From the NCBI GenBank assembly GCA_045612345.1, contig JAZKYV010000040.1, positions 13,749-77,748 on the forward strand: 64,000 bases of DNA. Reading direction: 5' to 3'. Positions 8,448 through 62,276 of the stretch are shown here, piece after piece. Numbering within the stretch: position 1 is the stretch's first letter; each line of letters opens with the position of its first letter. The position numbers and the translations under genes were made by a program. Source of the DNA: Bacteroidales bacterium (GTDB taxonomy: Bacteria > Bacteroidota > Bacteroidia > Bacteroidales > F082). The notes below the pieces were generated by a model that saw nothing but the letters and a program-made list of their open reading frames with translations, searched no databases and was not told the origin of the DNA.

Positions 8448-8490
8448 TCTCAAAATTTTTGAGGTTCTGAGTTTCTGAATTTCTGAATCT
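8448..8490. repeat. Tandem 7-8-bp word array (TTYTGAR), reverse complement of the YTCARAA family
   Basis: tctcaaaatttttgagg ttctgag tttctgaa tttctgaa tc. It fills the gap after the LTD gene stop and encodes the last ~13 codons of the minus-strand DUF1893-like ORF. Confidence 0.8.
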
Positions 8491-8884
8491 TTAAAAATGC
8501 TCCTTGAGGATCGTCAATATCAATACAAAGCGTTTCCATCGGGCATAAGCCATCGCCTTTTCTGTTGATGATTCTATCTACGATTTTATCGTATGAGATT
8601 TTAATATTATGATTTTCAAATACAACAACAGCAGGTTTGCTGATGGTAGGAGTATATACTTCCTTGACGCCTGCGTAGACCATAAGCAAAGCAGCAGCTT
8701 TACCTATTACTTTATCAGCCACAATAGCACCTTGCAGCTGCGATGCGTCTTCGTTAAGAAGTTTTAATAATGGAGCAACGCCCCTGTCATTTGAAACTAT
8801 AACAGAGGCGTCACTTTTATATATCACTATAGTGTGATTTTCCTTTAATAAAATATCTTTTAAATCTTCAATATGCATAATCAT
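8450..8884 (-). CDS. DUF1893 (TM1506-like) domain protein
   Basis: A glycine-rich core (DKVIGKAAALLMVYAGVKEVY) is typical of DUF1893. I place the start at the ATG at 8882-8884 (MIMHIEDL). The longer track ORF start (8932) is encoded by repeat arrays. The C-terminal KIQKFRNSEPQKF is also repeat-encoded. Confidence 0.55.
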   Translation of the reverse strand: MIMHIEDLKDILLKENHTIVIYKSDASVIVSNDRGVAPLLKLLNEDASQLQGAIVADKVIGKAAALLMVYAGVKEVYTPTISKPAVVVFENHNIKISYDKIVDRIINRKGDGLCPMETLCIDIDDPQGAFLKIQKFRNSEPQKF

Positions 8885-8887
8885 GGT

Positions 8888-8947
8888 CAACAGACTACGG
8901 ACAACAGTCAACAGATTTTGTTCAGAGTTCAACGTTCAATGTTCAAC
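8888..8947. repeat. Two abutting heptad arrays: (CAGACTA/CGGACAA family) then (GTTCARN family)
   Basis: caacagactacggacaacagtcaacagat (8888-8916), then gttcagagttcaacgttcaatgttcaac (8920-8947). It lies between two co-oriented genes and contains the stop codon of ORF 8929-9432. Confidence 0.85.
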
Positions 8948-9432
8948 AAAAAATATGTTCCAAACAATTGCAATAACATTCCAGGAACACCGATTCTAAA
9001 GTCTTGAACAGCAAGGTAAAATGATGATGTAATAGCCCATTCTGCCAATGTACCGATACATTGGTATGCCAAAACAACGATTAAAAGATTTATTATTGAA
9101 ACCTTATGTGTCTTGCTTGCAATGAAAGATGCAGCCAATGCCAAGACCACTGATTTTATCAATATTGCAGGAAGGACAGCGAGAGCTGGCATCCCGAATA
9201 AGATAGAGTTTATCACCGGCGACAAGACCGCTGTCATCAAACCGACTTTCGCACCATATTTATAAGATGCTATTAAAGTGAAGAAATAAATTGGCAAGAA
9301 GATTCTGCCACCGTTAGGAATCAGATGGCACAGTTGAGGCAGCAAGATATTGCCAACAACAAATAAAAAGACAAACAGATAAGTCTTTAACTCATTTAAT
9401 CCGTAGTTATAAATCTTTATTTCTCTTTCCAT
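8929..9432 (-). CDS. Small polytopic membrane protein (ECF-transporter S-component-like)
   Basis: 167 aa with about 5-6 hydrophobic helices. Size and topology resemble ECF S components or ThiW-type carriers, but I recognised no specific motif. The start is 1 nt from the upstream gene stop. Confidence 0.4.
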   Translation of the reverse strand: MEREIKIYNYGLNELKTYLFVFLFVVGNILLPQLCHLIPNGGRIFLPIYFFTLIASYKYGAKVGLMTAVLSPVINSILFGMPALAVLPAILIKSVVLALAASFIASKTHKVSIINLLIVVLAYQCIGTLAEWAITSSFYLAVQDFRIGVPGMLLQLFGTYFLLNIER

Positions 9433-15649: not shown

Positions 15650-15735
15650 AAATTCAGAATCTCAAAATACCAAAACCCAAAAATTTTGAGATTCTGAGTT
15701 TTTGAAGTTTTGAGGTTTTGAACTTCTGAGATTTT
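15650..15735. repeat. Octad word arrays (YTCARAAN)x4 / (TTYTGARN)x6 in inverted orientation
   Basis: Perfect 15-bp inverted repeat TCAGAATCTCAAAAT (15654-15668) / ATTTTGAGATTCTGA (15683-15697) with a 14-nt loop. The right arm continues as ttttgaag ttttgagg ttttgaac ttctgaga. Confidence 0.85.
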
Positions 15736-21633: not shown

Positions 21634-22107
21634 CTAAACATGATGATAAGGTTCACCTTTTATAATAGTAAAAGCGCGATAAAGCTGTTCAACAAAAATC
21701 AGACGTATCATCTGATGAGAGAATGTCATTTCTGAAAGGCTGATCTTGAATTTCGCCTTGTCATAAACATCTTTTGAAAAACCATAAGGACCGCCAACAA
21801 CGAAAACTATTCTTTTACTGCCGGCATTCATCTGTTTTTCTATCCATTGTGAAAACATCACCGAAGTGAAAGTCTTGCCTTTTTCATCTAATAAAATAAG
21901 ATCATCACCTGGATTAAGCTGCGATAAAATCAAATCGCCTTCTGCTTTTTTCTGCTGCTCTTCCGTTAAAGTCTTCCTGTTCTTTATGTCAGGAATAACC
22001 TTCATTTCAAAAGGAATATAATGTTCTAACCTTTTGATATATTTACCGATACCTGTCTCTAAATAACTTTCGTCGGTTTTGCCTATGACTACAAATAAAA
22101 TCTTCAT
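21634..22107 (-). CDS. rlmH: 23S rRNA (pseudouridine1915-N3)-methyltransferase RlmH
   Basis: 157 aa of SPOUT family: MKILFVVIGKT..., VFVVGGPYGF, LSEMTFSHQMIRLIFVEQLYRAF. Confidence 0.9.
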   Translation of the reverse strand: MKILFVVIGKTDESYLETGIGKYIKRLEHYIPFEMKVIPDIKNRKTLTEEQQKKAEGDLILSQLNPGDDLILLDEKGKTFTSVMFSQWIEKQMNAGSKRIVFVVGGPYGFSKDVYDKAKFKISLSEMTFSHQMIRLIFVEQLYRAFTIIKGEPYHHV

Positions 22108-22116
22108 ACTTTTTTA

Positions 22117-22154
22117 AGACAACAGACTACGGACAACATCAACAGACATTGTCC
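22117..22154. repeat. Heptad word array of the CAGACTA/CGGACAA family
   Basis: agacaacagactacggacaacatcaacagacattgtcc. It shares a 19-bp identical core, CAACAGACTACGGACAACA (22120-22138), with 8888-8906. Confidence 0.85.
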
Positions 22155-22196
22155 ATATTAATTTATGAGCAAAGATAATAAAGAATTTACAATTAA

Positions 22197-22267
22197 AACT
22201 CAGAAATTCAGAACTTAAGAAACTTAAAAAAATTTGAGATTTTGATGTTTTTAAATTCTGAATTTTT
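22197..22267. repeat. Inverted octad arrays (YTCAGAAN / TTAAGAAA) and (TTTGAKRT / TCTGAATT)
   Basis: aactcagaaattcagaacttaagaaactt, then an A-run, then tttgagattttgatgtttttaaattctgaattttt. Confidence 0.8.
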
Positions 22268-22280
22268 ATAATAAATTTTA

Positions 22281-26238: not shown

Positions 26239-26242
26239 CAGT

Positions 26243-26332
26243 ATCTTGAACTCAGAACCTTGAATCTTGAACACTGAACCTATTAGTTCAAAGTTCAAAG
26301 TTCAGAGTTCAGAGCTCAAAGCTCAGAGTTCT
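26243..26332. repeat. Gene-less hairpin built from heptad arrays: (CTTGAAY/CTCAGAAC)x5, loop, (GYTCARA)x6
   Basis: cttgaac tcagaac cttgaat cttgaac actgaac c, tatta, then gttcaaa gttcaaa gttcaga gttcaga gctcaaa gctcaga gttc. It starts 5 nt after the GT2 stop codon. Confidence 0.88.
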
Positions 26333-32710: not shown

Positions 32711-32822
32711 AAATTCAGAATTTCAAAATATCAGAAATTCAGAAAAATTTAAAACCCCTATAAGTTTAACTTATGGGGGTTCTTTATTTTGAGGTTTTGA
32801 GATTTTGAATTTCTGATATTTT
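32711..32822. repeat. Octad word arrays flanking a terminator; perfect 17-bp inverted repeat
   Basis: AAAATATCAGAAATTCA at 32725-32741 and its exact reverse complement at 32806-32822. Both arms are made of YTCARAAW / WTTYTGAR words. The terminator hairpin lies between them. Confidence 0.88.
32751..32790. terminator. Rho-independent terminator nested inside the inverted arrays
   Basis: Stem ACCCCTATAAG / CTTATGGGGGT with a T-rich tail, and an A-run on the other side. It lies between convergent genes. Confidence 0.75.
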
Positions 32823-35975: not shown

Positions 35976-35982
35976 TAATAAA

Positions 35983-36012
35983 AGACTACAGACTATGGAC
36001 TACAGACTACGG
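35983..36012. repeat. Heptad array (AGACTAY/GGACTAC)x4
   Basis: agactac agactat ggactac agactac gg. It is inverted relative to 36416-36443, with a 12-bp perfect complementary core (GGACTACAGACT). Confidence 0.88.
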
Positions 36013-36022
36013 TTAGAGTGTT

Positions 36023-36373
36023 TTAATTATTTTTTAGAAATTCTCTTAACTTATAGATTTGTTTGGATATAACTGACAATTTTGATTGTAGTTCTTGTCG
36101 TTTTTCTGTACTGCAATAATTTAAATCTTCACAAAGGTAAAGCATACTTTTGACTTCTGCGCAACTTCCATAAGATATGTTGAGATAACGAATGTAAGTT
36201 TTATCAGAACCACTTTCTGAACCTTCAGCAATGTTGTTCATAATAGACAAAGAAGCTCTTTGTATTTGATCACGGAAACCATAATCATTACAAGTATACA
36301 TTACTTCATAAATGGCTTTGACAAATAATCTAGAGTCTTGCCATACTCTTAAATTTTCAAGATTTCTTTCCAT
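36023..36373 (-). CDS. Four-helix-bundle protein, 23S rRNA-intervening-sequence / DGR-Avd family (copy 1)
   Basis: 116 aa with the family signature DQIQRASLSIMNNIAEGSESGS...YL.IS.GS..E. Confidence 0.85.
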   Translation of the reverse strand: MERNLENLRVWQDSRLFVKAIYEVMYTCNDYGFRDQIQRASLSIMNNIAEGSESGSDKTYIRYLNISYGSCAEVKSMLYLCEDLNYCSTEKRQELQSKLSVISKQIYKLREFLKNN

Positions 36374-36393
36374 AATTTTTTTGGTTTAAGGTT
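36370..36393. repeat. 24-bp perfect direct repeat, copy 2
   Basis: Covers the four-helix-bundle ORF start codon and leader, 418 bp from copy 1. Confidence 0.9.
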
Positions 36394-36408
36394 ATTATTA
36401 TGATTGAT

Positions 36409-37002
36409 TTAATCTGAAGTCCGAGGTCCGAAGTCTGTAGTCCTTCTTTCCACTAACTCGCAAATAATATGTCCTATCATAATGTGGCTTTCTTGTATGC
36501 GTGGGGTGTCGGTGGAAGGAACGTTAAGTAATATTCCGCCGAAGTCTTTCATCATTCCACCCGTTGCTCCGGTGAGCGAGATGATGTTGACGCCGAGTTC
36601 TTCACATGTTTTATAAGCTTCTATTATGTTACGGCTGTTACCGCTTGTCGATATTCCAACGAGCACGTCGCCTTTTTTTGCTGACGCTCTCATGATTCTG
36701 CTATAAACCATGTCGTAGCCGTAGTCGTTGCTGACGGCTGTCATGTAAGAAGAGTTGCAATGCAGGGCTTCTGCGTTGAGCGGATCGCGATCCAGATAAA
36801 AGCGGCCGCTGAGTTCCGCAGCGAGATGCTGTGCGTCGGCAGCGCTGCCGCCATTGCCGCAGAAATGAATCTTGCCGCCATTACGCAGACTCTCTACGAT
36901 GAGATTGACAGCGTCTTCAATAGACTGCATCAGTTTCTCATCAGATAAGATTTTGCTTTTTACCTCAATGCTTTGCTCTATGGACTCTTTTATTCTGTTC
37001 AT
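36409..37002 (-). CDS. gmhA: D-sedoheptulose-7-phosphate isomerase (SIS domain)
   Basis: 197 aa, collinear with E. coli GmhA (FCGNGGSAADAQHLAAEL, GISTSGNS, RIQESHI). The last ~12 codons (RRTTDFGPRTSD) are encoded by the heptad array. Confidence 0.85.
   Translation of the reverse strand: MNRIKESIEQSIEVKSKILSDEKLMQSIEDAVNLIVESLRNGGKIHFCGNGGSAADAQHLAAELSGRFYLDRDPLNAEALHCNSSYMTAVSNDYGYDMVYSRIMRASAKKGDVLVGISTSGNSRNIIEAYKTCEELGVNIISLTGATGGMMKDFGGILLNVPSTDTPRIQESHIMIGHIICELVERRTTDFGPRTSD
36416..36443. repeat. Heptad array (GRAGTCY/GTAGTCC)x4
   Basis: gaagtcc gaggtcc gaagtct gtagtcc. It lies inside the 3' end of gmhA. Confidence 0.88.
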
Positions 37003-39365: not shown

Positions 39366-39405
39366 AATCTCAGAAATTCAAAAATTCAAAACCTCAGAAT
39401 TTCGG
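39366..39405. repeat. Solo octad array (YTCARAAW)x4
   Basis: aatctcagaa attcaaaa attcaaaa cctcagaa tttcgg. It begins 9 nt after the S46 peptidase stop. Confidence 0.8.
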
Positions 39406-49782: not shown

Positions 49783-49810
49783 AAGACACCAAGACACCGA
49801 GACACCGAGA
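49783..49810. repeat. Octad array (GACACCRA)x3
   Basis: aagacacc aagacacc gagacacc gaga, starting 1 nt after the radA stop. It is inverted relative to 50222-50256, with a 13-bp perfect complementary core (CCAAGACACCGAG). Confidence 0.88.
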
Positions 49811-49840
49811 TTTATATTTATTAACTAAAAGTCAAAAATT

Positions 49841-50200
49841 ATGAAGCGCACAATAGAAAATTTATACATTTGGCAAGAGTCAAGAAGCGTAGTAAATGAT
49901 ATCTACACATTGATGAAAGATTGTAGAGATTTTGGTTTTAAGGACCAAATTCAAAGAGCATCTATAAGTATTATGAATAATATTGCAGAAGGAACAGAAT
50001 CAGGATCTGATGCGAAGTATATAAACTTTCTGAATATTTCAAGAGGCAGTTGCTCCGAAGTGCATTCAATGTTATACCTATGTGAAGATTTTAAAATATG
50101 TTCACAGGAAGAAAGAATTAAGATTCAGAATAAAATAAAACTATTGTCAATAGGGATAGTAAACTTAATCAATTATATTTCAAATAACAAGAAGCATTAA
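49841..50200 (+). CDS. Four-helix-bundle protein, 23S rRNA-IVS / DGR-Avd family (copy 2)
   Basis: 119 aa with DQIQRASISIMNNIAEGTESGS...FLNISRGSCSEV. It is roughly 55-60 percent identical by eye to copy 1. Confidence 0.85.
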   Translation: MKRTIENLYIWQESRSVVNDIYTLMKDCRDFGFKDQIQRASISIMNNIAEGTESGSDAKYINFLNISRGSCSEVHSMLYLCEDFKICSQEERIKIQNKIKLLSIGIVNLINYISNNKKH

Positions 50201-50215
50201 TCAGGTTACTTAAAC

Positions 50216-51142
50216 TCAATTCTCGGTGTCTTGGAGTCTAAGTGACTTGGTGACTCTAAAAAACCATACTACCAAAAACGACATTCCCCATCGTGAAAGC
50301 AGCATCCAGAGGTATGCTCCGCCGGCTGCAGTGAACAATAAAAGATCTTCTAAGTTGCTGTGTGATATCCCTATATGCATATTTAGAAGGTCGTTTTCTT
50401 CTTTGGTGGTTTCGCCTTTTTCTGCTTCTTCTATCATAATGCCTGCGCCGTAAGCCAGTCCCAAGGTGTTGGATACTAACCATAAGAAAGCGCATTTCGG
50501 TGATAGACCGAAAAATATCATCACTGGCTTTAAGAATCTTGAGATGTATTGTATTATGCCGAACTCGGTTAATATCTTTTGTAACAATGTCAAGAGATAT
50601 ACCAACAAGGCCATCGTGAGTATGTTCTTCGTTGTTCTGAAAGCCCATTGCTTTAACATCACTGCAAATGTCAGATTGTCTTGTATGGAACTTTCAATGG
50701 CTTGGTTTTCAAAGCCTCCAGGCATGATTTTGTTTAAGACCCATCCTAATATGAATGCTGATAATGTTCTTACTATAACAATCTTGATTACAGAAGAACC
50801 TGTCTTATGCTGAACGGCTGTCTCTACGATCATATTATGCGAACAAAGCACCATGACGGATAATATCGTCGCGGCTCTTGTGCTGAGTTCTAATGTCGTC
50901 ATCACGGCGATGGCGGAATAGCAGTTGACGAAATATCCTGATACATAAGCGAGCGCTGCTTCACCAGGAAGTCCGAAGTGTGAGAAGATAGGAGTGAGCC
51001 AATATGAAATCCATTCTATGATTCCGAAATATTGTAATAATAATATCACAAATGATAGAGAGACCATTATCTTGGTCAGCCACCAGATGGTTTTTAATGC
51101 GCTCGGTCTGGCGCTTTTGATGCAATTTGTAAATCGTGACAT
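50216..51142 (-). CDS. Nucleoside-recognition (Gate) domain-like polytopic membrane protein
   Basis: 308 aa with about 8 TM helices. The family call is tentative. The last ~12 codons (VTKSLRLQDTEN) are encoded by the octad array. Confidence 0.45.
   Translation of the reverse strand: MSRFTNCIKSARPSALKTIWWLTKIMVSLSFVILLLQYFGIIEWISYWLTPIFSHFGLPGEAALAYVSGYFVNCYSAIAVMTTLELSTRAATILSVMVLCSHNMIVETAVQHKTGSSVIKIVIVRTLSAFILGWVLNKIMPGGFENQAIESSIQDNLTFAVMLKQWAFRTTKNILTMALLVYLLTLLQKILTEFGIIQYISRFLKPVMIFFGLSPKCAFLWLVSNTLGLAYGAGIMIEEAEKGETTKEENDLLNMHIGISHSNLEDLLLFTAAGGAYLWMLLSRWGMSFLVVWFFRVTKSLRLQDTEN
50222..50256. repeat. Octad array (CTYGGWGW)x4, reverse complement of GACACCRA
   Basis: ctcggtgt cttggagt ctaagtga cttggtga ctc. 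Confidence 0.88.
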
Positions 51143-51787: not shown

Positions 51788-51795
51788 GTCTCATA

Positions 51796-51841
51796 TTTTT
51801 AATTAGCAAACATAATGATTTTTAATTAGCAAACATAATGA
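51796..51841. repeat. Perfect 23-bp tandem duplication (TTTTTAATTAGCAAACATAATGA x2)
   Basis: Copies at 51796-51818 and 51819-51841. On the minus strand each carries TATGTTTG (51807-51814 and 51830-51837), a TAnnTTTG -7 motif upstream of the gene starting at 51787. Confidence 0.9.
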
Positions 51842-54373: not shown

Positions 54374-54375
54374 TT

Positions 54376-54410
54376 AGACTTTGAACCTTGACTTTGAACC
54401 TTGAACTTTT
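54376..54410. repeat. Heptad array (CTTTGAA/CCTTGAM)x5
   Basis: agactttgaaccttgactttgaaccttgaactttt, starting 3 nt after the topA stop. It is inverted relative to 54827-54892. Confidence 0.85.
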
Positions 54411-54413
54411 AAT

Positions 54414-54446
54414 AATACCTCGGGATTTTCCGGGGTATTTTTTATA
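54414..54446 (+). terminator. Rho-independent terminator
   Basis: Stem ATACCTCGG / CCGGGGTAT (one mismatch) followed by T6. Confidence 0.7.
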
Positions 54447-54475
54447 TCAAAATTTATAACCTTAAAAATTACAAC

Positions 54476-54826
54476 ATGAGAAATTTTAGAGAATATGACA
54501 TTTGGAAAGATTCGATGATCATTACCAAAGATGTTTATTTATATACAAAAGAGTTTCCAAAACAAGATGCCATTATAAATCAAATGCAAAGGGCTGCAAT
54601 TTCTATCCCGTCTAATATTGCAGAAGGTTCATCGAGAAAGTCTTCTGTTGAATTTGCTAGATATATAGAAATAGCATTGGGTTCAGCATACGAGTTAGAG
54701 ACACAAATAGAATTGTCTTTTCTTCTTCATTACATAAATAATGATATTTATAAAAAATTAATATCAAATGTTTGTAGTGTTGAAAAACGAATGTCAAAAT
54801 TTATATCAACATTAAGAGAAAAATAG
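54476..54826 (+). CDS. Four-helix-bundle protein, 23S rRNA-IVS / DGR-Avd family (copy 3, divergent)
   Basis: 116 aa with NQMQRAAISIPSNIAEGSSR...YIEIALGSAYELETQ. Confidence 0.8.
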   Translation: MRNFREYDIWKDSMIITKDVYLYTKEFPKQDAIINQMQRAAISIPSNIAEGSSRKSSVEFARYIEIALGSAYELETQIELSFLLHYINNDIYKKLISNVCSVEKRMSKFISTLREK

Positions 54827-54892
54827 CTCAAAGTTCAGAGCTCAAAGTTCAAAGCTTAAAGTTCAGAGCTCAAAGTTCAAAGTTCAGAGTCC
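54827..54892. repeat. Heptad array (GYTCARA/GCTTAAA)x9
   Basis: ctcaaa gttcaga gctcaaa gttcaaa gcttaaa gttcaga gctcaaa gttcaaa gttcaga gtcc. It fills exactly the gap between the 4HB stop (54826) and the polA stop (54893). Confidence 0.9.
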
Positions 54893-57583
54893 TTAGTGCG
54901 CTTCCAGCCAATTGGTTCCTGTGTTGAGATTAACTTCAATAGGAACATTGAGTGGGAGCGCATTTGTCATTTTATCTTTGACGAGTTCGCTCAATATATC
55001 GAGTTCTTCTTTATGGACGTCGAAGACCAATTCGTCGTGTACCTGTAATATCATCTTGGATTTCAGATCTCTTGCTTTCATCTCGTTGTAGATGTTGGTC
55101 ATCGCTATTTTTATCATATCGGCTGAGCTGCCTTGTATTGGCGCATTGATGGCGTTTCTCTCTGCGAAGTTCCTTACTACGCTGTTGCCGGAGTTGATGT
55201 CGCGGAGATAACGACGGCGTCCTAACATAGTTTCAACATATCCGTATTGTTTCGCGAAATCGACTTGCTTGTCGATATATTCTTGAATGCCGATATATTC
55301 TTTGAAATAATTCTTTATTATCTCTGAGGCCTCGCTTCTTGATATCTTTAATCTTTCTGCCAATCCGAATGCCGACATTCCGTAAATGATGCCGAAGTTG
55401 ACAGCTTTGGCGTTGCGACGCATTTCGCTGGTGACGTCTTTTATGTCAACGCCATAGACGCGAGCTGCTGTGTCAGCGTGAATGTCAAGCCCCTCACGGA
55501 AGGCAGACTGCATGGCTTGGTCGCCGCTGAGATGAGCGATGATTCTTAACTCAATCTGCGAATAATCCGCTGCGAGCAGTATGTGGTTTTCGTCACGTGG
55601 AACGAAGGCCTTTCTGATCTCACGGCCTTTGTCGGTACGAACCGGTATGTTCTGGAGGTTAGGGTTGTTGGAACTCAATCGACCTGTGGCTGTAACGGCC
55701 TGGTTGAATGAAGTGTGAATGAGACCATCGTAAGGGCTTACCAATGAAGGCAAGGCATCGACATAAGTCGATTTGAGTTTTGTCAGAGAACGATAGTCGA
55801 GAATATGTTGTACTATAGGGTTTTCGTTTATGATCTTTTGGAGGACATCTTCGCCTGTAGGATACTGGCCTGTCTTTGTTTTCTTGGCAGGCGCCTTTAT
55901 CTGCAGCTTGTCAAAAAGAATCTCGCCCAATTGTTTTGGTGATCCAATGTTGAAAGTCGTGCCAGCGATTTCATAGATGCTGTTTTCTATATCAGCAATC
56001 TCTTTGGCTTGTTCCTCGCTGATCTGTTTCAGTCCGTTGATGTCTATCTTGACGCCGTTGGATTCCATCTTGGCAAGGACTCTTACCAATGGCATCTCGA
56101 TGTCGTGGAAAAGGCTTTCTAAATCATTTTCAGATAATAAGTCCTTGAACTTATCGTAAAGCTGCCATCTGATGTCGGTATTGTCTGTGGCGTAAATGTC
56201 GTTGAGATAATCGAGACTATGATTCAATTCCGGCTCAATGAGATAGTGAGCTATCATGCAGTCCCATAACTTATTGTTGATCTCAAAACCATATTTTGCA
56301 AGAATTGAGATGTCGGTCTTGATGTTATGGCCTATTATCGTTTTCTCATTGTCGTTGAAGATGCAAGAGAATTTTGTTAATAAGTCTTTGCATTTCTCGT
56401 CATCGACAGGAAGTTCTATCTTGTAAATGTCGTTAGGGTTGACGGCAAAAGTCATTTCTCTTGTCTCGATATGGAAAGAGAATTCATTGCAGCTCTTGAG
56501 ATTGTCAATAAGTTCATTGATTTGAGAATCATCTTTAACGATGATGAACTCACGAGTTTTAACAATGTTGGTAGCAGGTTCTTCATCGAAGCCGCCGAAA
56601 AGATCAAGCTGGCTGTTGGCTGCTGGCTGTTGGGTATTAGCCATCGGCTTTTGGCTTTTAGCTACTGGTTGTTGGTTATTGGTTGAAGTCTGTTGTCTGT
56701 TGTCTGTTGTCCGTTGACTCTTAAACCTCGCAAGGAATGTTCTGAATTCCAGTTCTTCGAATAATTCGGTGAGGCGATCCATATCAGGGTCTTTGACTTT
56801 CAGCTGTTCTTCATCGAAATCGACAGGTACGTTGGTGTCTATTGTCGCGAGTTTTTTAGACATAAGACCTTGTTGTGCGAAGTTGATGACGTTCTCTCGC
56901 ATTTTGCCTTTTAGTTTATCGGCATTTGCGATGAGGTTTTCAACGGAGTCGAATTCAGCTATGAGTTTGGAAGCGTTTTTCTCCCCGATGCCAGGGATGC
57001 CAGGGATGTTATCGGAAGCGTCGCCCCATAGTCCGAGTATGTCGATGACTTGTTCAGGGCGGGCAATGCTGTATCTCTCGCATACTTCTGCAGGTCCGAG
57101 GACTTTTGCAGGCTCGCCGCCTTTTGCAGGTTTATAGATGAATATGTTTTCACTTACGAGCTGCCCGAAGTCTTTGTCGGGAGTCATCATAAATGTGGTG
57201 AAGCCTTCTTTTTCAGCTTTCTTGGATAGCGTTCCTATTATGTCATCGGCTTCATAGCCTTCGCGTTCGAAGATAGGAATGTTAAAAGCTTTTATGATTT
57301 CCTTTATGTAAGGGACAGAAGCCTTGATGTCAGGAGGTGTCTCTTCTCGGTTGGCCTTATAAGCGGAGAAGTCGTCGGTGCGGAGGGTAGGAGCGCCGAG
57401 GTCGAAGGCAATGCCTATATGGGTGGGTTTTTCGTTTTTAAGCACTTCATATAAAGTGTTCAGAAAACCCATAATGGCAGAAGTGTTCAAGCCTTTTGAG
57501 TTGATTCTTGGGTTTTTATTTAAAGCAAAATAGGCCCTATATATAAGTGCGTAAGCGTCGAGAAAGAATACCTTTTTCATCAT
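54893..57583 (-). CDS. polA: DNA polymerase I
   Basis: 896 aa with a 5' nuclease domain (FLDAYALIYRAYF, GIPGIGEKNA), a 3'-5' exo-like domain, and pol motifs (LLAADYSQIELR, RRNAKAVNFGIIYG, QVHDELVFD). It contains an in-frame repeat-derived linker. Confidence 0.95.
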   Translation of the reverse strand: MMKKVFFLDAYALIYRAYFALNKNPRINSKGLNTSAIMGFLNTLYEVLKNEKPTHIGIAFDLGAPTLRTDDFSAYKANREETPPDIKASVPYIKEIIKAFNIPIFEREGYEADDIIGTLSKKAEKEGFTTFMMTPDKDFGQLVSENIFIYKPAKGGEPAKVLGPAEVCERYSIARPEQVIDILGLWGDASDNIPGIPGIGEKNASKLIAEFDSVENLIANADKLKGKMRENVINFAQQGLMSKKLATIDTNVPVDFDEEQLKVKDPDMDRLTELFEELEFRTFLARFKSQRTTDNRQQTSTNNQQPVAKSQKPMANTQQPAANSQLDLFGGFDEEPATNIVKTREFIIVKDDSQINELIDNLKSCNEFSFHIETREMTFAVNPNDIYKIELPVDDEKCKDLLTKFSCIFNDNEKTIIGHNIKTDISILAKYGFEINNKLWDCMIAHYLIEPELNHSLDYLNDIYATDNTDIRWQLYDKFKDLLSENDLESLFHDIEMPLVRVLAKMESNGVKIDINGLKQISEEQAKEIADIENSIYEIAGTTFNIGSPKQLGEILFDKLQIKAPAKKTKTGQYPTGEDVLQKIINENPIVQHILDYRSLTKLKSTYVDALPSLVSPYDGLIHTSFNQAVTATGRLSSNNPNLQNIPVRTDKGREIRKAFVPRDENHILLAADYSQIELRIIAHLSGDQAMQSAFREGLDIHADTAARVYGVDIKDVTSEMRRNAKAVNFGIIYGMSAFGLAERLKISRSEASEIIKNYFKEYIGIQEYIDKQVDFAKQYGYVETMLGRRRYLRDINSGNSVVRNFAERNAINAPIQGSSADMIKIAMTNIYNEMKARDLKSKMILQVHDELVFDVHKEELDILSELVKDKMTNALPLNVPIEVNLNTGTNWLEAH
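56609..56720. repeat. Intragenic heptad array, 16 units (112 bp), inside polA
   Basis: ctggctg ttggctg ctggctg ttgggta ttagcca tcggctt ttggctt ttagcta ctggttg ttggtta ttggttg aagtctg ttgtctg ttgtctg ttgtccg ttgactc. On the coding strand this gives the 7-aa-periodic QRTTDNR QQTSTNN QQPVAKS QKPMANT QQPAANS. Confidence 0.88.
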
Positions 57584-60485: not shown

Positions 60486-60520
60486 AAAACGTCACATTCT
60501 GAGAAAGTGACGTTTTTTTT
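60484..60520. terminator. Bidirectional rho-independent terminator
   Basis: AAAAAACGTCAC, loop, GTGACGTTTTTTTT, between convergent genes. Confidence 0.8.
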
Positions 60521-60523
60521 GTT

Positions 60524-60557
60524 CAATGGCCAACGGCCAATAGCCTTTAGCCAATTA
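60524..60557. repeat. Heptad array (CAAYRGC)x4-5 overlapping the pheS stop
   Basis: caatggc caacggc caatagc ctttagc caatta. The stop codon (60555-60557) lies in the last unit. Confidence 0.8.
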
Positions 60558-61568
60558 TGCTTGTTCAAACTGTTTCAAGAATCTTACATCGTTTTCGAAG
60601 TAAAGACGTAAGTCGTTGACTTGATATTTCAACATGGCGATACGTTCAACACCCATACCGAAAGCGAAGCCTGTATATACTTCAGGGTCGATGTTACATG
60701 CTTTCAAGATGTTAGGGTCGCAGATGCCGCAGCCTAAGATTTCCAACCAGCCTGTGTGTTTACAGATGTTACAGCCTTTTCCGCCGCAGATGTTACATGA
60801 GATGTCCATTTCTGCAGAAGTCTCTGTAAATGGGAAATAAGAAGGACGGAAACGAACCTTTGTCTCTTCGCCGAAATATTCTTTCACGAAGTGGAATAAT
60901 GTCTGTTTCAAGTCGGCAAAAGAAACGTCTTTGTCGATGTAAAGACCTTCTATCTGGTGGAAGATGCAGTGAGCGCGAGCTGAGATAGCTTCGTTACGGA
61001 ACACTCTGCCAGGAGCGATGATGCGGATAGGAGGCTGTCCTTGTTCCATAGCGCGTACCTGAACGCTTGAAGTGTGAGTTCTCAACAATACATCTGGATC
61101 TTTGCTGATGAAGAATGTGTCTTGCATATCGCGAGCAGGATGGTCAGGAGGGAAGTTCAATGCTGTGAAGCAGTGGAAGTCGTCTTCGATCTCAGGACCT
61201 TCGCTGATGACAAAACCCAATCGCTCAAATATGTTGTTGATTTCTTCTCTTACGATTGACAATGGGTGACGAGCACCTTTCATTGCATCTACAGGGAGAG
61301 ACAAATCTTGGTCGTTTGTAGCGACGTTTTGTGTCTCGAATTGTTGCATCTGTTCGTCAAAGATTTCTTGAGCTCTGTTTTTTAACTCGTTAAGTTTTAT
61401 ACCGAGCTCTTTGCGCATTTCCGGAGCCACTTGTTTGAAATCGGCAAACAATGCAGGAATAGCACCTTTCTTACTGATATAAGCAACTCTGAAGTTTTCT
61501 AAAGCTTCTTTGCTTTCTGCTTTAAAAGAGTTAATCTCTCCTAATATCTGAGCTATTTTATCTATCAT
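60555..61568 (-). CDS. pheS: Phenylalanine--tRNA ligase alpha subunit
   Basis: 337 aa with class II motifs (HPLSIV, RTHTSSVQVR, FRPSYFPFTETSAE, GFAFGMGVERIAM). Confidence 0.95.
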   Translation of the reverse strand: MIDKIAQILGEINSFKAESKEALENFRVAYISKKGAIPALFADFKQVAPEMRKELGIKLNELKNRAQEIFDEQMQQFETQNVATNDQDLSLPVDAMKGARHPLSIVREEINNIFERLGFVISEGPEIEDDFHCFTALNFPPDHPARDMQDTFFISKDPDVLLRTHTSSVQVRAMEQGQPPIRIIAPGRVFRNEAISARAHCIFHQIEGLYIDKDVSFADLKQTLFHFVKEYFGEETKVRFRPSYFPFTETSAEMDISCNICGGKGCNICKHTGWLEILGCGICDPNILKACNIDPEVYTGFAFGMGVERIAMLKYQVNDLRLYFENDVRFLKQFEQA

Positions 61569-61581
61569 TTTATTTACTTTT

Positions 61582-61650
61582 AGTCAACAGACAACGGACA
61601 ACGGACAACACTCAAAAGTCATTGTCAATTGTTAATTGTCAATTGTTAAT
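61582..61650. repeat. Heptad arrays (RGACAAC)x4 then (GTYAATT)x4, partly self-complementary
   Basis: agtcaac agacaac ggacaac ggacaac actcaaa agtcatt gtcaatt gttaatt gtcaatt gttaat. It fills the pheS-start / PPIase-stop spacer. Confidence 0.85.
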
Positions 61651-61652
61651 TT

Positions 61653-62276
61653 TTATTTTAAAATTTCAATTGTCATTGTTACGGCTTCAACAGGAACATC
61701 CATATAACCTGTCTTTACCTTAGCGATTTTGTCGATGATTTCGAGACCTTCAACAACTTCACCGAATACTGTATATTCGCCGTCCAAGTGTGGAGTGCCG
61801 CCAACTGTTGTATAAGCTTCGATTTGTTCTTGTGTGAAAGTCAAGCCCATACGTTGTTGATACATTTGGATGTGAGCATCTGTTAACACTTGACCTTGAA
61901 CGATGTAGAATTGGCATCCGCTAGAAGCTTTTTTAGGGTTGACATGGTCTCCTTGACGAGCTGCAGCCAGAGCGCCTTTTTTGTGGATGTGGTTCGCGCG
62001 GAATTCAGCTGGGATTGTATAACCTGGATCAACGCTACCGTCTTGGTTGTGGCCGCCTTGAATCATGAAGTTATTGATAACACGGTGGAATGGTGAATTG
62101 TTGTACCAACCTTCGTTAATAAGCTTTATGAAATTATCTCTATGTAATGGAGTGTCGTTGTATAACTTAACAGTGATGTCACCTAATGAAGTCTTGATCA
62201 AGACTAATGTTTCTTTTTCTTGTGCTTGTGTTGTCATGCCTAATAATATACAAATGATTAAACAAATTTTTTTCAT
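61653..62276 (-). CDS. Cyclophilin-type peptidyl-prolyl cis-trans isomerase (secreted)
   Basis: 207 aa with a signal peptide, FHRVINNFMIQGG, and SGCQFYIV. Confidence 0.9.
   Translation of the reverse strand: MKKICLIICILLGMTTQAQEKETLVLIKTSLGDITVKLYNDTPLHRDNFIKLINEGWYNNSPFHRVINNFMIQGGHNQDGSVDPGYTIPAEFRANHIHKKGALAAARQGDHVNPKKASSGCQFYIVQGQVLTDAHIQMYQQRMGLTFTQEQIEAYTTVGGTPHLDGEYTVFGEVVEGLEIIDKIAKVKTGYMDVPVEAVTMTIEILK

Follow-up and report, generated by a model that had tools for sequence, protein, structure and literature searches.

In a 64,000-nucleotide stretch of a Bacteroidales genome (NCBI GenBank assembly GCA_045612345.1, contig JAZKYV010000040.1; the whole stretch is called the window, and positions are given in its numbering), the polA gene for DNA polymerase I (Pol I) contains an array of units of 7 nucleotides (nt) that encodes the complete tether between the 5'-nuclease domain and the following 3'-5' exonuclease-like domain. 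Most probably, this tract is to be regarded as a microsatellite of heptanucleotide units, which are gained and lost as wholes under selection on reading frame and composition. The change by whole units is directly demonstrated by the comparison of strains. The gene, the domains of its product and the tract are located as follows.

54893 to 57583, minus strand: polA, DNA polymerase I, 896 residues (intact open reading frame, Pfam and PDB matches, identical NCBI protein P0031)
56780 to 57574, minus strand: 5'-nuclease domains, residues 4-268 (PF02739, residues 4-171; PF01367, residues 175-268)
56609 to 56720, minus strand: heptad tract of 16 units that share a single register of 7 nt (consensus CAAMAGC) and code for residues 290-325
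56123 to 56545, minus strand: 3'-5' exonuclease-like domain, residues 347-487 (PF01612)
54902 to 56035, minus strand: family A polymerase domain, residues 517-894 (PF00476, E = 3.5e-166)

The 5'-nuclease, exonuclease-like and family A polymerase domains are held in a single chain, as judged from Pfam and from the structures 6vde, 1taq and that of the Klenow fragment. The phmmer alignments to the full-length Pol I structures 6vde and 1taq end at residues 286-287 (...FLARF); alignments to Pol I structures pick up again at residues 477-484, and for the exonuclease-like domain phmmer gave no alignment to Pol I sequences of the PDB. The tract extends from residue 290 up to the conserved LDLFGG and therefore constitutes the whole tether. 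The location between the 5'-nuclease and the exonuclease-like domain, as proposed in the initial annotation of this DNA, is thus backed by the homology boundaries from both Pfam and PDB. An AlphaFold2 model of the protein, computed from a 20-sequence alignment, was poor (mean predicted local distance difference test (pLDDT) 49.9, predicted template modelling score 0.36); in this low-quality model, residues 289-346 form a coil with the lowest pLDDT (23-29) beside a well-predicted exonuclease-like domain. The ExoI motif of that domain reads H371-I-E373 (FSFHIETREMT; 56465-56473) and not DxE, the canonical motif of the E. coli proofreading domain. It is therefore plausible to assume from the motif that the exonuclease-like domain has probably lost its proofreading function in this clade. 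H371 is nearly invariant across the clade, and the more distant loci L083 and L084 retain FAFDTE.

On the coding strand, units 1-8 of the tract read CAACGGA CAACAGA CAACAGA CAACAGA CTTCAAC CAATAAC CAACAAC CAGTAGC, and units 9-16 read TAAAAGC CAAAAGC CGATGGC TAATACC CAACAGC CAGCAGC CAACAGC CAG. The translation (residues 290-325) is QRTTDNR QQTSTNN QQPVAKS QKPMANT QQPAANS Q. Three parts can be distinguished.

56689 to 56716, minus strand: homogeneous 5' block, CAACGGA followed by CAACAGA x3 (QRTTDNRQQ)
56633 to 56688, minus strand: degenerate middle units, CTTCAAC ... TAATACC
56609 to 56632, minus strand: homogeneous 3' block, CAACAGC CAGCAGC CAACAGC CAG (QQPAANSQ)

Tandem Repeats Finder reported period 7 for 56610-56709 (14.3 copies, 70% matches) and for 56688-56716 (4.1 copies, 95% matches), as well as period 21 for 56610-56680 (3.4 copies). 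These results, the unit list and the shuffles described below confirm the sixteen consecutive units that had been noticed originally. The order of the unit families had been stated correctly for the plus strand; on the coding strand it is the opposite, CAACRGA-type units coming first and GCCAA-type units last, and the family name GCCAAYRG has eight letters and is not a heptad. As an alternative description, two arrays split by a 3-nt spacer were considered and dropped, because one register suits all 16 units and all strains.

Since 7 and 3 are coprime, an array of heptads yields one and the same heptapeptide whichever frame is read, which results in an exact period of seven residues; for example, CAACAGC x3 encodes QQPTANS. 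The in-frame position and the 7-residue period of the protein, both claimed previously, were confirmed by translation, and the period arises at the level of the DNA. The lag-7 self-match of the tract is 0.713, compared to 0.33 +/- 0.044 in mononucleotide and codon-order shuffles, none of 20,000 being as high. When the same 36 residues were re-encoded randomly with the codon usage of the window, these synonymous recodings had a lag-7 match of 0.487 +/- 0.046, and again 0 of 20,000 reached 0.713. The lag-21 match (0.621) does not exceed that of the recodings (0.577 +/- 0.030, p = 0.10). Because the lag-7 match is higher than in recodings of the same peptide, the 7-nt periodicity is a property of the DNA and not of the protein. 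Selection for a 7-residue peptide, with the DNA period as a by-product, would account for the exact period of the protein and for QQPTANS-like motifs in related proteins. It is very unlikely, however, given that the excess is seen at lag 7 and not at lag 21, that the motifs are wholly different among relatives (QQSAVSS, SSKFKVQ, NEELGIR, TQTL), that the linker is so much less conserved between close strains than the rest of the protein (see below), and that the same units are present in non-coding DNA.

A strict scan of the window detected ten segments of period 7, none of period 6, one of period 8 and none of period 9, and none in block-shuffled controls. The segments in polA are the only ones of period 7 that are internal to coding sequence. 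The arrays most closely connected to the tract are the following.

8888 to 8915, plus strand: intergenic array CAACAGA CTACGGA CAACAGT CAACAGA, adjoining the start codon of the minus-strand gene 8450-8884 and antisense to this gene
22117 to 22154, plus strand: intergenic array GACAACA GACTACG GACAACA TCAACAGACA, roughly 10 nt before the start of the minus-strand gene 21634-22107 on its upstream side
61582 to 61612, plus strand: intergenic array AGTCAAC AGACAAC GGACAAC GGACAAC AC, upstream of the minus-strand gene pheS (60555-61568) at a distance of some 15 nt from its start
60522 to 60554, plus strand: intergenic array CAATGGC CAACGGC CAATAGC CTTTAGC CAA, directly after the pheS stop codon, with units of the family that is also seen in the 3' part of the tract
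54827 to 54892, no strand assigned: RGYTCAA array of nine units, adjoining the polA stop codon (Tandem Repeats Finder)

The 5' block of the tract can be aligned unit by unit with the arrays at 8885, 22108 and 61569, and the four CAACRGA loci are alignable over a common block of four units. The pattern CAACRGWCAACRGWCAAC (CAACRGW x2.5, at most two mismatches) matches solely in polA and at 8888, 22120 and 61585, with 10 matches where 0.01 are expected. The GCCAANR pattern, which the 3' block fits, matches polA and 60522-60554 and cross-matches 61583-61608 (14 matches, 0.31 expected). By these counts and the four-locus alignment, the tract has units in common with the intergenic arrays listed in the initial annotation. 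The three intergenic CAACRGA copies lie 0-15 nt upstream of minus-strand start codons and have a transcriptional sense opposite to that in polA. More generally, a few heptamer families occupy many loci of the window: CAACRGA is found at four, RGYTCAA and TTGAAAA at several.

That the tract reflects chance composition or an assembly artefact of this single contig has a practically negligible probability. Nothing beyond the general risk of metagenome-assembled genomes speaks for it, whereas the shuffles, pattern counts and strict scan, the identical NCBI protein and at least 17 further assemblies with 896-residue proteins and homologous tracts speak against it. Moreover, the units are imperfect, so that the tract assembles unambiguously.

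The tract changes rapidly between strains. The protein of the window (P0031) and P0032 are identical at 853 of the 858 residues outside the tract (99.4%), and at only 21 of 38 inside (55%). Fifteen more proteins of 896 residues are 98% identical outside the tether and 66-74% inside. For locus L093, the flanking DNA is 97.1% and 98.1% identical to that of the window and the tract 72%; for L095, the values are 94-95% and 79%. The tract can evolve at more than ten times the pace of the DNA around it, and about 75 times faster at the protein level. A single 7-nt register is kept in the tracts of all strains, and the divergence of the window tract from those of L093, L095 and L001 is greatest in the degenerate middle units.

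The changes in length are quantised. The tract of L096 corresponds to an L095-type tract that lacks CAATGGC CAGCAGC CAACAGC, i.e. three heptads or 21 nt. Measured between fixed anchors, the linkers of a sister lineage have 93, 93, 114, 135 and 144 nt of DNA, all in frame. For 104 of 118 relatives, the tether length falls into one of three modulo-7 classes (31/38/59/66, 36/43/50 and 19/33/40/47 residues). In pairs with at least 95% identity in the flanks, linker differences of 7, 14, 21 and 28 residues are common; differences of 2-8 residues occur where the units are hexamers, and differences of 5, 12 and 19 residues where a 15-nt TCAAAGT block is involved. Length polymorphism in 21-nt steps, which had been suggested as a check, is therefore present in the three heptads missing from L096, in the 93, 114 and 135 nt of the sister lineage and in the protein pairs that differ in steps of seven residues. 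The high variability of the linker compared to the remainder of the gene, together with three genes for Avd-like PF05635 proteins in the window, also brings to mind targeted hypermutation by a diversity-generating retroelement. This origin is highly improbable: The observed changes are indels of whole heptads and a reshuffling of units in one register rather than fixed-length, adenine-specific substitutions, and no template repeat was seen, in a window that was not searched for a reverse transcriptase.

Uncultured Bacteroidales account for all of the closest genomes. All relatives stem from metagenome assemblies and their matches are phylogenetically related; in addition, the full-length PolA query favours full-length, in-frame proteins. 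In 80 Bacteroidota polA loci the tether comprises 9-46 residues without common sequence, and a linker is present in every orthologue. A 7-nt period like that of the window, whose tract was scored separately and at a similar level, occurs in L001 alone among these 80 loci (z = 8.5); the remaining Bacteroidota linkers reach at best z = 3.3, and most are below 2. In all, 78 other PolA linkers from Bacteroidota proved aperiodic. L002 and L003 (64-66% identity) lack a 7-nt period in the linker. The possibility raised at the outset, that distant relatives carry a homologous, aperiodic linker of the same length, does not apply, as the linkers of distant orthologues are unrelated, aperiodic and of other lengths. 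The in-frame nature of the supposed insert in polA was borne out, but not its insertion into a site devoid of a linker, since every orthologue has one. Nor is there a clean indel of 35-40 residues among orthologues, since the tract seems to have taken the place of the ancestral linker instead of extending it. The idea that arrays of this kind can create a low-complexity protein segment holds, the whole linker being built of heptads.

Among the 120 closest PolA proteins (77-100% identity), nearly all have repeat-coded linkers, mostly of heptads. The units include RGTCAGC (QQSAVSS), GTCAACA and GCCAACA, TCAAAGT (SSKFKVQ) and TAGGAAT (NEELGIR), furthermore the 8-mer CAAGACWA and 6- and 12-mers (SQGQ, TQTL). 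CAACAGT is a unit in the tracts of L001, L087 and L097, and RGYTCAA, the family that adjoins the polA stop codon in the window, is found within the polA tracts of L001 and L097. In other Bacteroidales (L006, L008 and L009), the linker DNA contains C-runs and G-runs that look palindromic, e.g. TCCCCCCTGCCCCCC...AGGGGGAC (SPLPP..QRG); another repeat of intergenic type may have entered the same tether there.

The units carry an imprint of selection. In the orientation used, the families found in polA are free of stop codons and hydrophilic (mean hydropathy -0.5 to -2.8), whereas their reverse complements encode hydrophobic peptides rich in Cys and Trp, or stops. TTGAAAA, ATTGTTA and AATTATG, which are intergenic and never found in polA, all contain stops, be it in one orientation or in both; the sole exception free of stops is TTGAAAA read in reverse. 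In the TAGGAAT array of L083 and L084, each third unit is GAGGAAT, exactly where an in-frame TAG would otherwise occur. These patterns indicate that units are filtered by selection for reading frame, absence of stops and hydrophilic composition.

The following course of events would account for the observations. The tract in the PolA tether would belong to a population of tandem arrays with 7-8-nt units that extends across the lineage and whose other members reside in intergenic spacers and at the C-terminal ends of genes. Within an array, whole heptads would be gained or lost by slipped-strand mispairing or unequal exchange, and some whole alleles would be exchanged between strains; both slippage as the cause of unit change and the origin of the first units are what we infer. 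Selection would let pass only net changes of three heptads (21 nt, seven residues), which keep the polymerase in frame, units without stop codons, and the orientation that codes for hydrophilic residues. The outcome would be a hypervariable linker rich in Gln, Ser, Thr, Asn and Pro and of quantised length.

Several points weigh against this explanation. Slippage itself was not observed. Some differences are more than a plain gain or loss of units: Between the alleles of 38 and 43 residues there is a net block of 15 nt that carries another unit family (TCAAAGT) and displaces the register by 1 nt. Passive slippage alone does not predict that a small set of unit families is found again and again at many loci; likewise unpredicted are the swaps of family in orthologous spacers of strains whose PolA proteins are 99.4% identical outside the linker. 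In addition, the database matches are related sequences and not independent events, and assembly from short reads may have collapsed long homogeneous arrays. Because families recur at many loci and because replacements occur that change the family or do not comprise whole units, copying between arrays or exchange of alleles from strain to strain probably contributes.

In a stronger version, heptad blocks would not have grown in place but would have come into polA from other arrays of the genome, through ectopic gene conversion, through template switching or with the aid of a dedicated mobile system. Such active copying is compatible with the microsatellite explanation, as the origin of the units, and we regard it as possible, though doubtful. 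It would fit the observation that the four CAACRGA loci share a layout of four units and not merely the units. The RGYTCAA block of the L001 and L097 tracts is polymorphic in the species of the window and common to other species, and spacer arrays of near-identical strains have swapped their unit family. Contigs break or jump at arrays in L004, L086 and P0008, which implies that the same arrays exist elsewhere in these genomes. On the other hand, no donor copy with matching flanks was found, and neither a target-site duplication nor a terminal structure is visible. In their middle units, the tract of the window and that of L001 are partly alignable (AAAAGCC versus CAAAGTT), so that divergence in place is possible, and the common vocabulary could stem from the selection filters. 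Of the "active insertion or expansion" originally proposed, expansion is shown, while active insertion from intergenic arrays is plausible. More speculative still, and rather unlikely, is a family-specific process that actively writes or copies the arrays, with the polA tether as one target and maybe with a link to the PF05635 genes described below. If this were true, blocks such as the TCAAAGT units of certain polA alleles would have been brought in from arrays elsewhere.

For the microsatellite, net changes of one or two units would disrupt the frame, and out-of-frame alleles appear in the assemblies of two related lineages, possibly through assembly collapse. In the sister lineage, polA contains a second heptad array (TTCAAAG/TTCAGCG), which lies inside the exonuclease-like domain.

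L090, 4160 to 4245; L087, 6124 to 6169; L091 and L092, same site: exonuclease-domain array

An allele of 82 nt (12 contigs) is in frame, and alleles of 68, 47 and 33 nt, which differ from it by whole heptads (14, 35 and 49 nt), are not; the frame is kept solely by the 82-nt allele and by an allele class of 26 residues in proteins. In the out-of-frame cases, polA is called as two genes of 390-413 and 454 residues. The polA arrays might form a contingency locus: With one or two units gained or lost, 5'-nuclease and polymerase would become separated, either reversibly or as a tolerated split of the gene. Several findings would agree with such a switch: In the k141 contigs, no allele of the exonuclease-domain array attains 141 nt, two samples have an identical out-of-frame allele, and the same contigs hold longer linker arrays in frame. 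Furthermore, the downstream 490 codons are open, with 24-35 synonymous versus 1-3 non-synonymous codon differences among the "split" strains, and nine truncated products of the RGTCAGC lineage end just past the array in a shifted frame. Nevertheless, we consider a frameshift switch improbable. All of the some 30 proteins nearest to that of the window are full length, and no frameshifted allele was found in its species (in a search that favoured full-length matches); most proteins of either affected lineage are in frame, and polA is not a typical phase-variable gene. Strong downstream purifying selection would be seen for artefactual frameshifts as well; the constraint on the 490 codons thus fits either an artefact or a tolerated or reversible split. 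RGTCAGC counts range from 2 to 26 in near-identical proteins and occur in all three frames, which resembles collapse, and assembly collapse is the likelier source of the frameshifts in the RGTCAGC lineage. The polA allele of the window itself is in frame.

Long, homogeneous RGTCAGC arrays are found in L082 (1636-1801, 166 nt), L089 (4261-4377), L086 and L004 (1-108) and in proteins P0006-P0025. At these arrays, contigs end or continue in a chimeric manner, and polA is called with a shifted frame. The contig of L004 ends at the linker, and its first 108 nt had no match among the sequences collected.

Further observations concern the surroundings of polA and the arrays of the window in general. 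Many spacers carry 7- or 8-nt arrays from a small vocabulary (TTGAAAA, RGYTCAA, AAATTCAG, ATTGTYA), namely those at 114-187, 15650-15735, 22196-22270, 26239-26331, 32711-32822, 39370-39391 and 61621-61655. Spacer arrays often form inverted pairs that flank a terminator-like hairpin and begin a few bases from stop or start codons. The C-terminal tails of three open reading frames consist of translated repeats: heptads GGACTAC/AGACTTC in 36409-37002 (tail 36409-36445, ...RRTTDFGPRTSD), 8-mers in 8450-8884 (tail 8450-8492, ...KIQKFRNSEPQKF) and an array in 8929-9432 (tail 8929-8947, ...LLNIER*). Arrays thus also invade other tolerant coding ends, for example those at 36409-36445 and 8450-8492. 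A perfect 23-nt direct repeat (ATTTTTAATTAGCAAACATAATG x2) is located at 51795-51841 in the spacer upstream of topA. A scan of the window at Rfam gathering thresholds gave no hits.

The three PF05635 genes of the window (23S_rRNA_IVP, four-helix-bundle, Avd-like) all lie in loops between inverted 7- or 8-nt arrays.

54374 to 54892: PF05635 cassette
35981 to 36445: PF05635 cassette
49783 to 50262: PF05635 cassette

Conspecific strains with near-identical PolA differ in whether they have the cassette between polA and topA. In the window, L096 and L097, this spacer contains a cassette of about 420 nt with TTTGAAC arms of 9 and 4.5 heptads; in L093 it contains a 59-nt inverted array of another family (TTGAAAA), and in L095 only a 30-nt hairpin (GGACCTTTGAAC-TCAAA-GTTCAAAGTC). 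A hidden Markov model built from the three 23S_rRNA_IVP proteins retrieved no independent further examples in the collected loci. The layout of PF05635 genes between inverted arrays recalls rRNA intervening sequences, and no description of it was found in the literature searched. The spacer after pheS (60486-60554) is comparably variable in kind: The window and L093 have four direct heptads (TTGGCTA AAGGCTA TTGGCCG TTGGCCA), and L095, L096 and L097 have the 15-nt mini-palindrome TTGGCTTTTAAGCCA instead. The nearby, array-free polA-acpP spacer is nearly unchanged in the same strains, as judged by eye. Arrays may grow out of short hairpin arms.

These results, which include sequence data at the population level, show that a repeat unit indivisible by three can persist in a core gene of replication and repair, where it forms an entire inter-domain tether. 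They provide a natural example of a mutational process that makes and remodels protein sequence, with selection limiting the visible change to steps of three units. Linkers of 19 to 66 residues in otherwise near-identical enzymes constitute a natural series for studying what Pol I requires of its tether. The origin of heptamer arrays becomes more testable, owing to vocabularies shared between loci, sites with either an array or a mini-hairpin, and cassettes in the loops of inverted arrays. On the practical side, arrays break or mislead short-read assemblies, and polA can look truncated or split in metagenome-assembled genomes.

The tract can be compared to several known systems. E. coli Pol I has a protease-sensitive tether between the small fragment and the Klenow fragment, at the same place in the protein as the heptad-coded tether of the window. 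In other bacteria this tether is short and non-repetitive, as in the 80 Bacteroidota loci, and lacks a 7-nt period outside the clade. A tether tolerates changes in both length and sequence, which explains how an array can live in it. In the phase-variable contingency loci of Haemophilus and Neisseria, non-triplet repeats are likewise located inside open reading frames, and slippage by one unit shifts the frame. In contrast, the alleles of the window and its close relatives are in frame, and the gene encodes a housekeeping polymerase rather than a surface or restriction-modification function. The short tandemly repeated repetitive (STRR) heptamers of heterocystous cyanobacteria, reportedly described by Mazel et al. 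in 1990, are tandem repeats that occur in dispersed families. CAACAGT is reportedly one of their units. As in the window, a few heptamer families are dispersed at many loci; the host, however, belongs to another phylum than the Bacteroidales, and we know of no STRR array that serves as a protein linker.

Heptanucleotides are the commonest class of long simple-sequence repeats in bacteria, and such repeats are over-represented and lie mainly in non-coding DNA, polymerase slippage being regarded as the way in which they change; inside genes, unit lengths divisible by three are the expected ones (Mrazek et al. 2007, as summarised in PMC4679880). The polA tract resembles this class in having tandem 7-nt units above chance. 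It differs in that a non-triplet unit lies in frame within a housekeeping gene and varies in 21-nt quanta, and in that the host belongs to an uncultured gut or rumen lineage of Bacteroidales. TAACTGA heptamers form direct repeats in Beggiatoaceae, Cyanobacteria and some Bacteroidetes (MacGregor 2015, PMC4679880). Their arrays hug start codons and share spacers with other heptamer arrays, contigs often break there, and the few copies inside open reading frames have a stop-free orientation, tolerant positions and the 7-residue peptide LSVISYQ (PMC4679880). Stop-free orientation and a tolerant position also characterize the polA tract. TAACTGA itself has one match in the window (at most two mismatches), compared to 0.92 expected, and several unit families are found here rather than one. 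Furthermore, the in-frame TAACTGA cases mostly concern hypothetical proteins and protein termini, in contrast to the internal linker of PolA, and no quantised variation at the strain level was reported for them (PMC4679880). What the present case adds is a new host lineage, a site within a housekeeping polymerase, namely its internal tether, and evidence from populations that the change is quantised and greatly accelerated.

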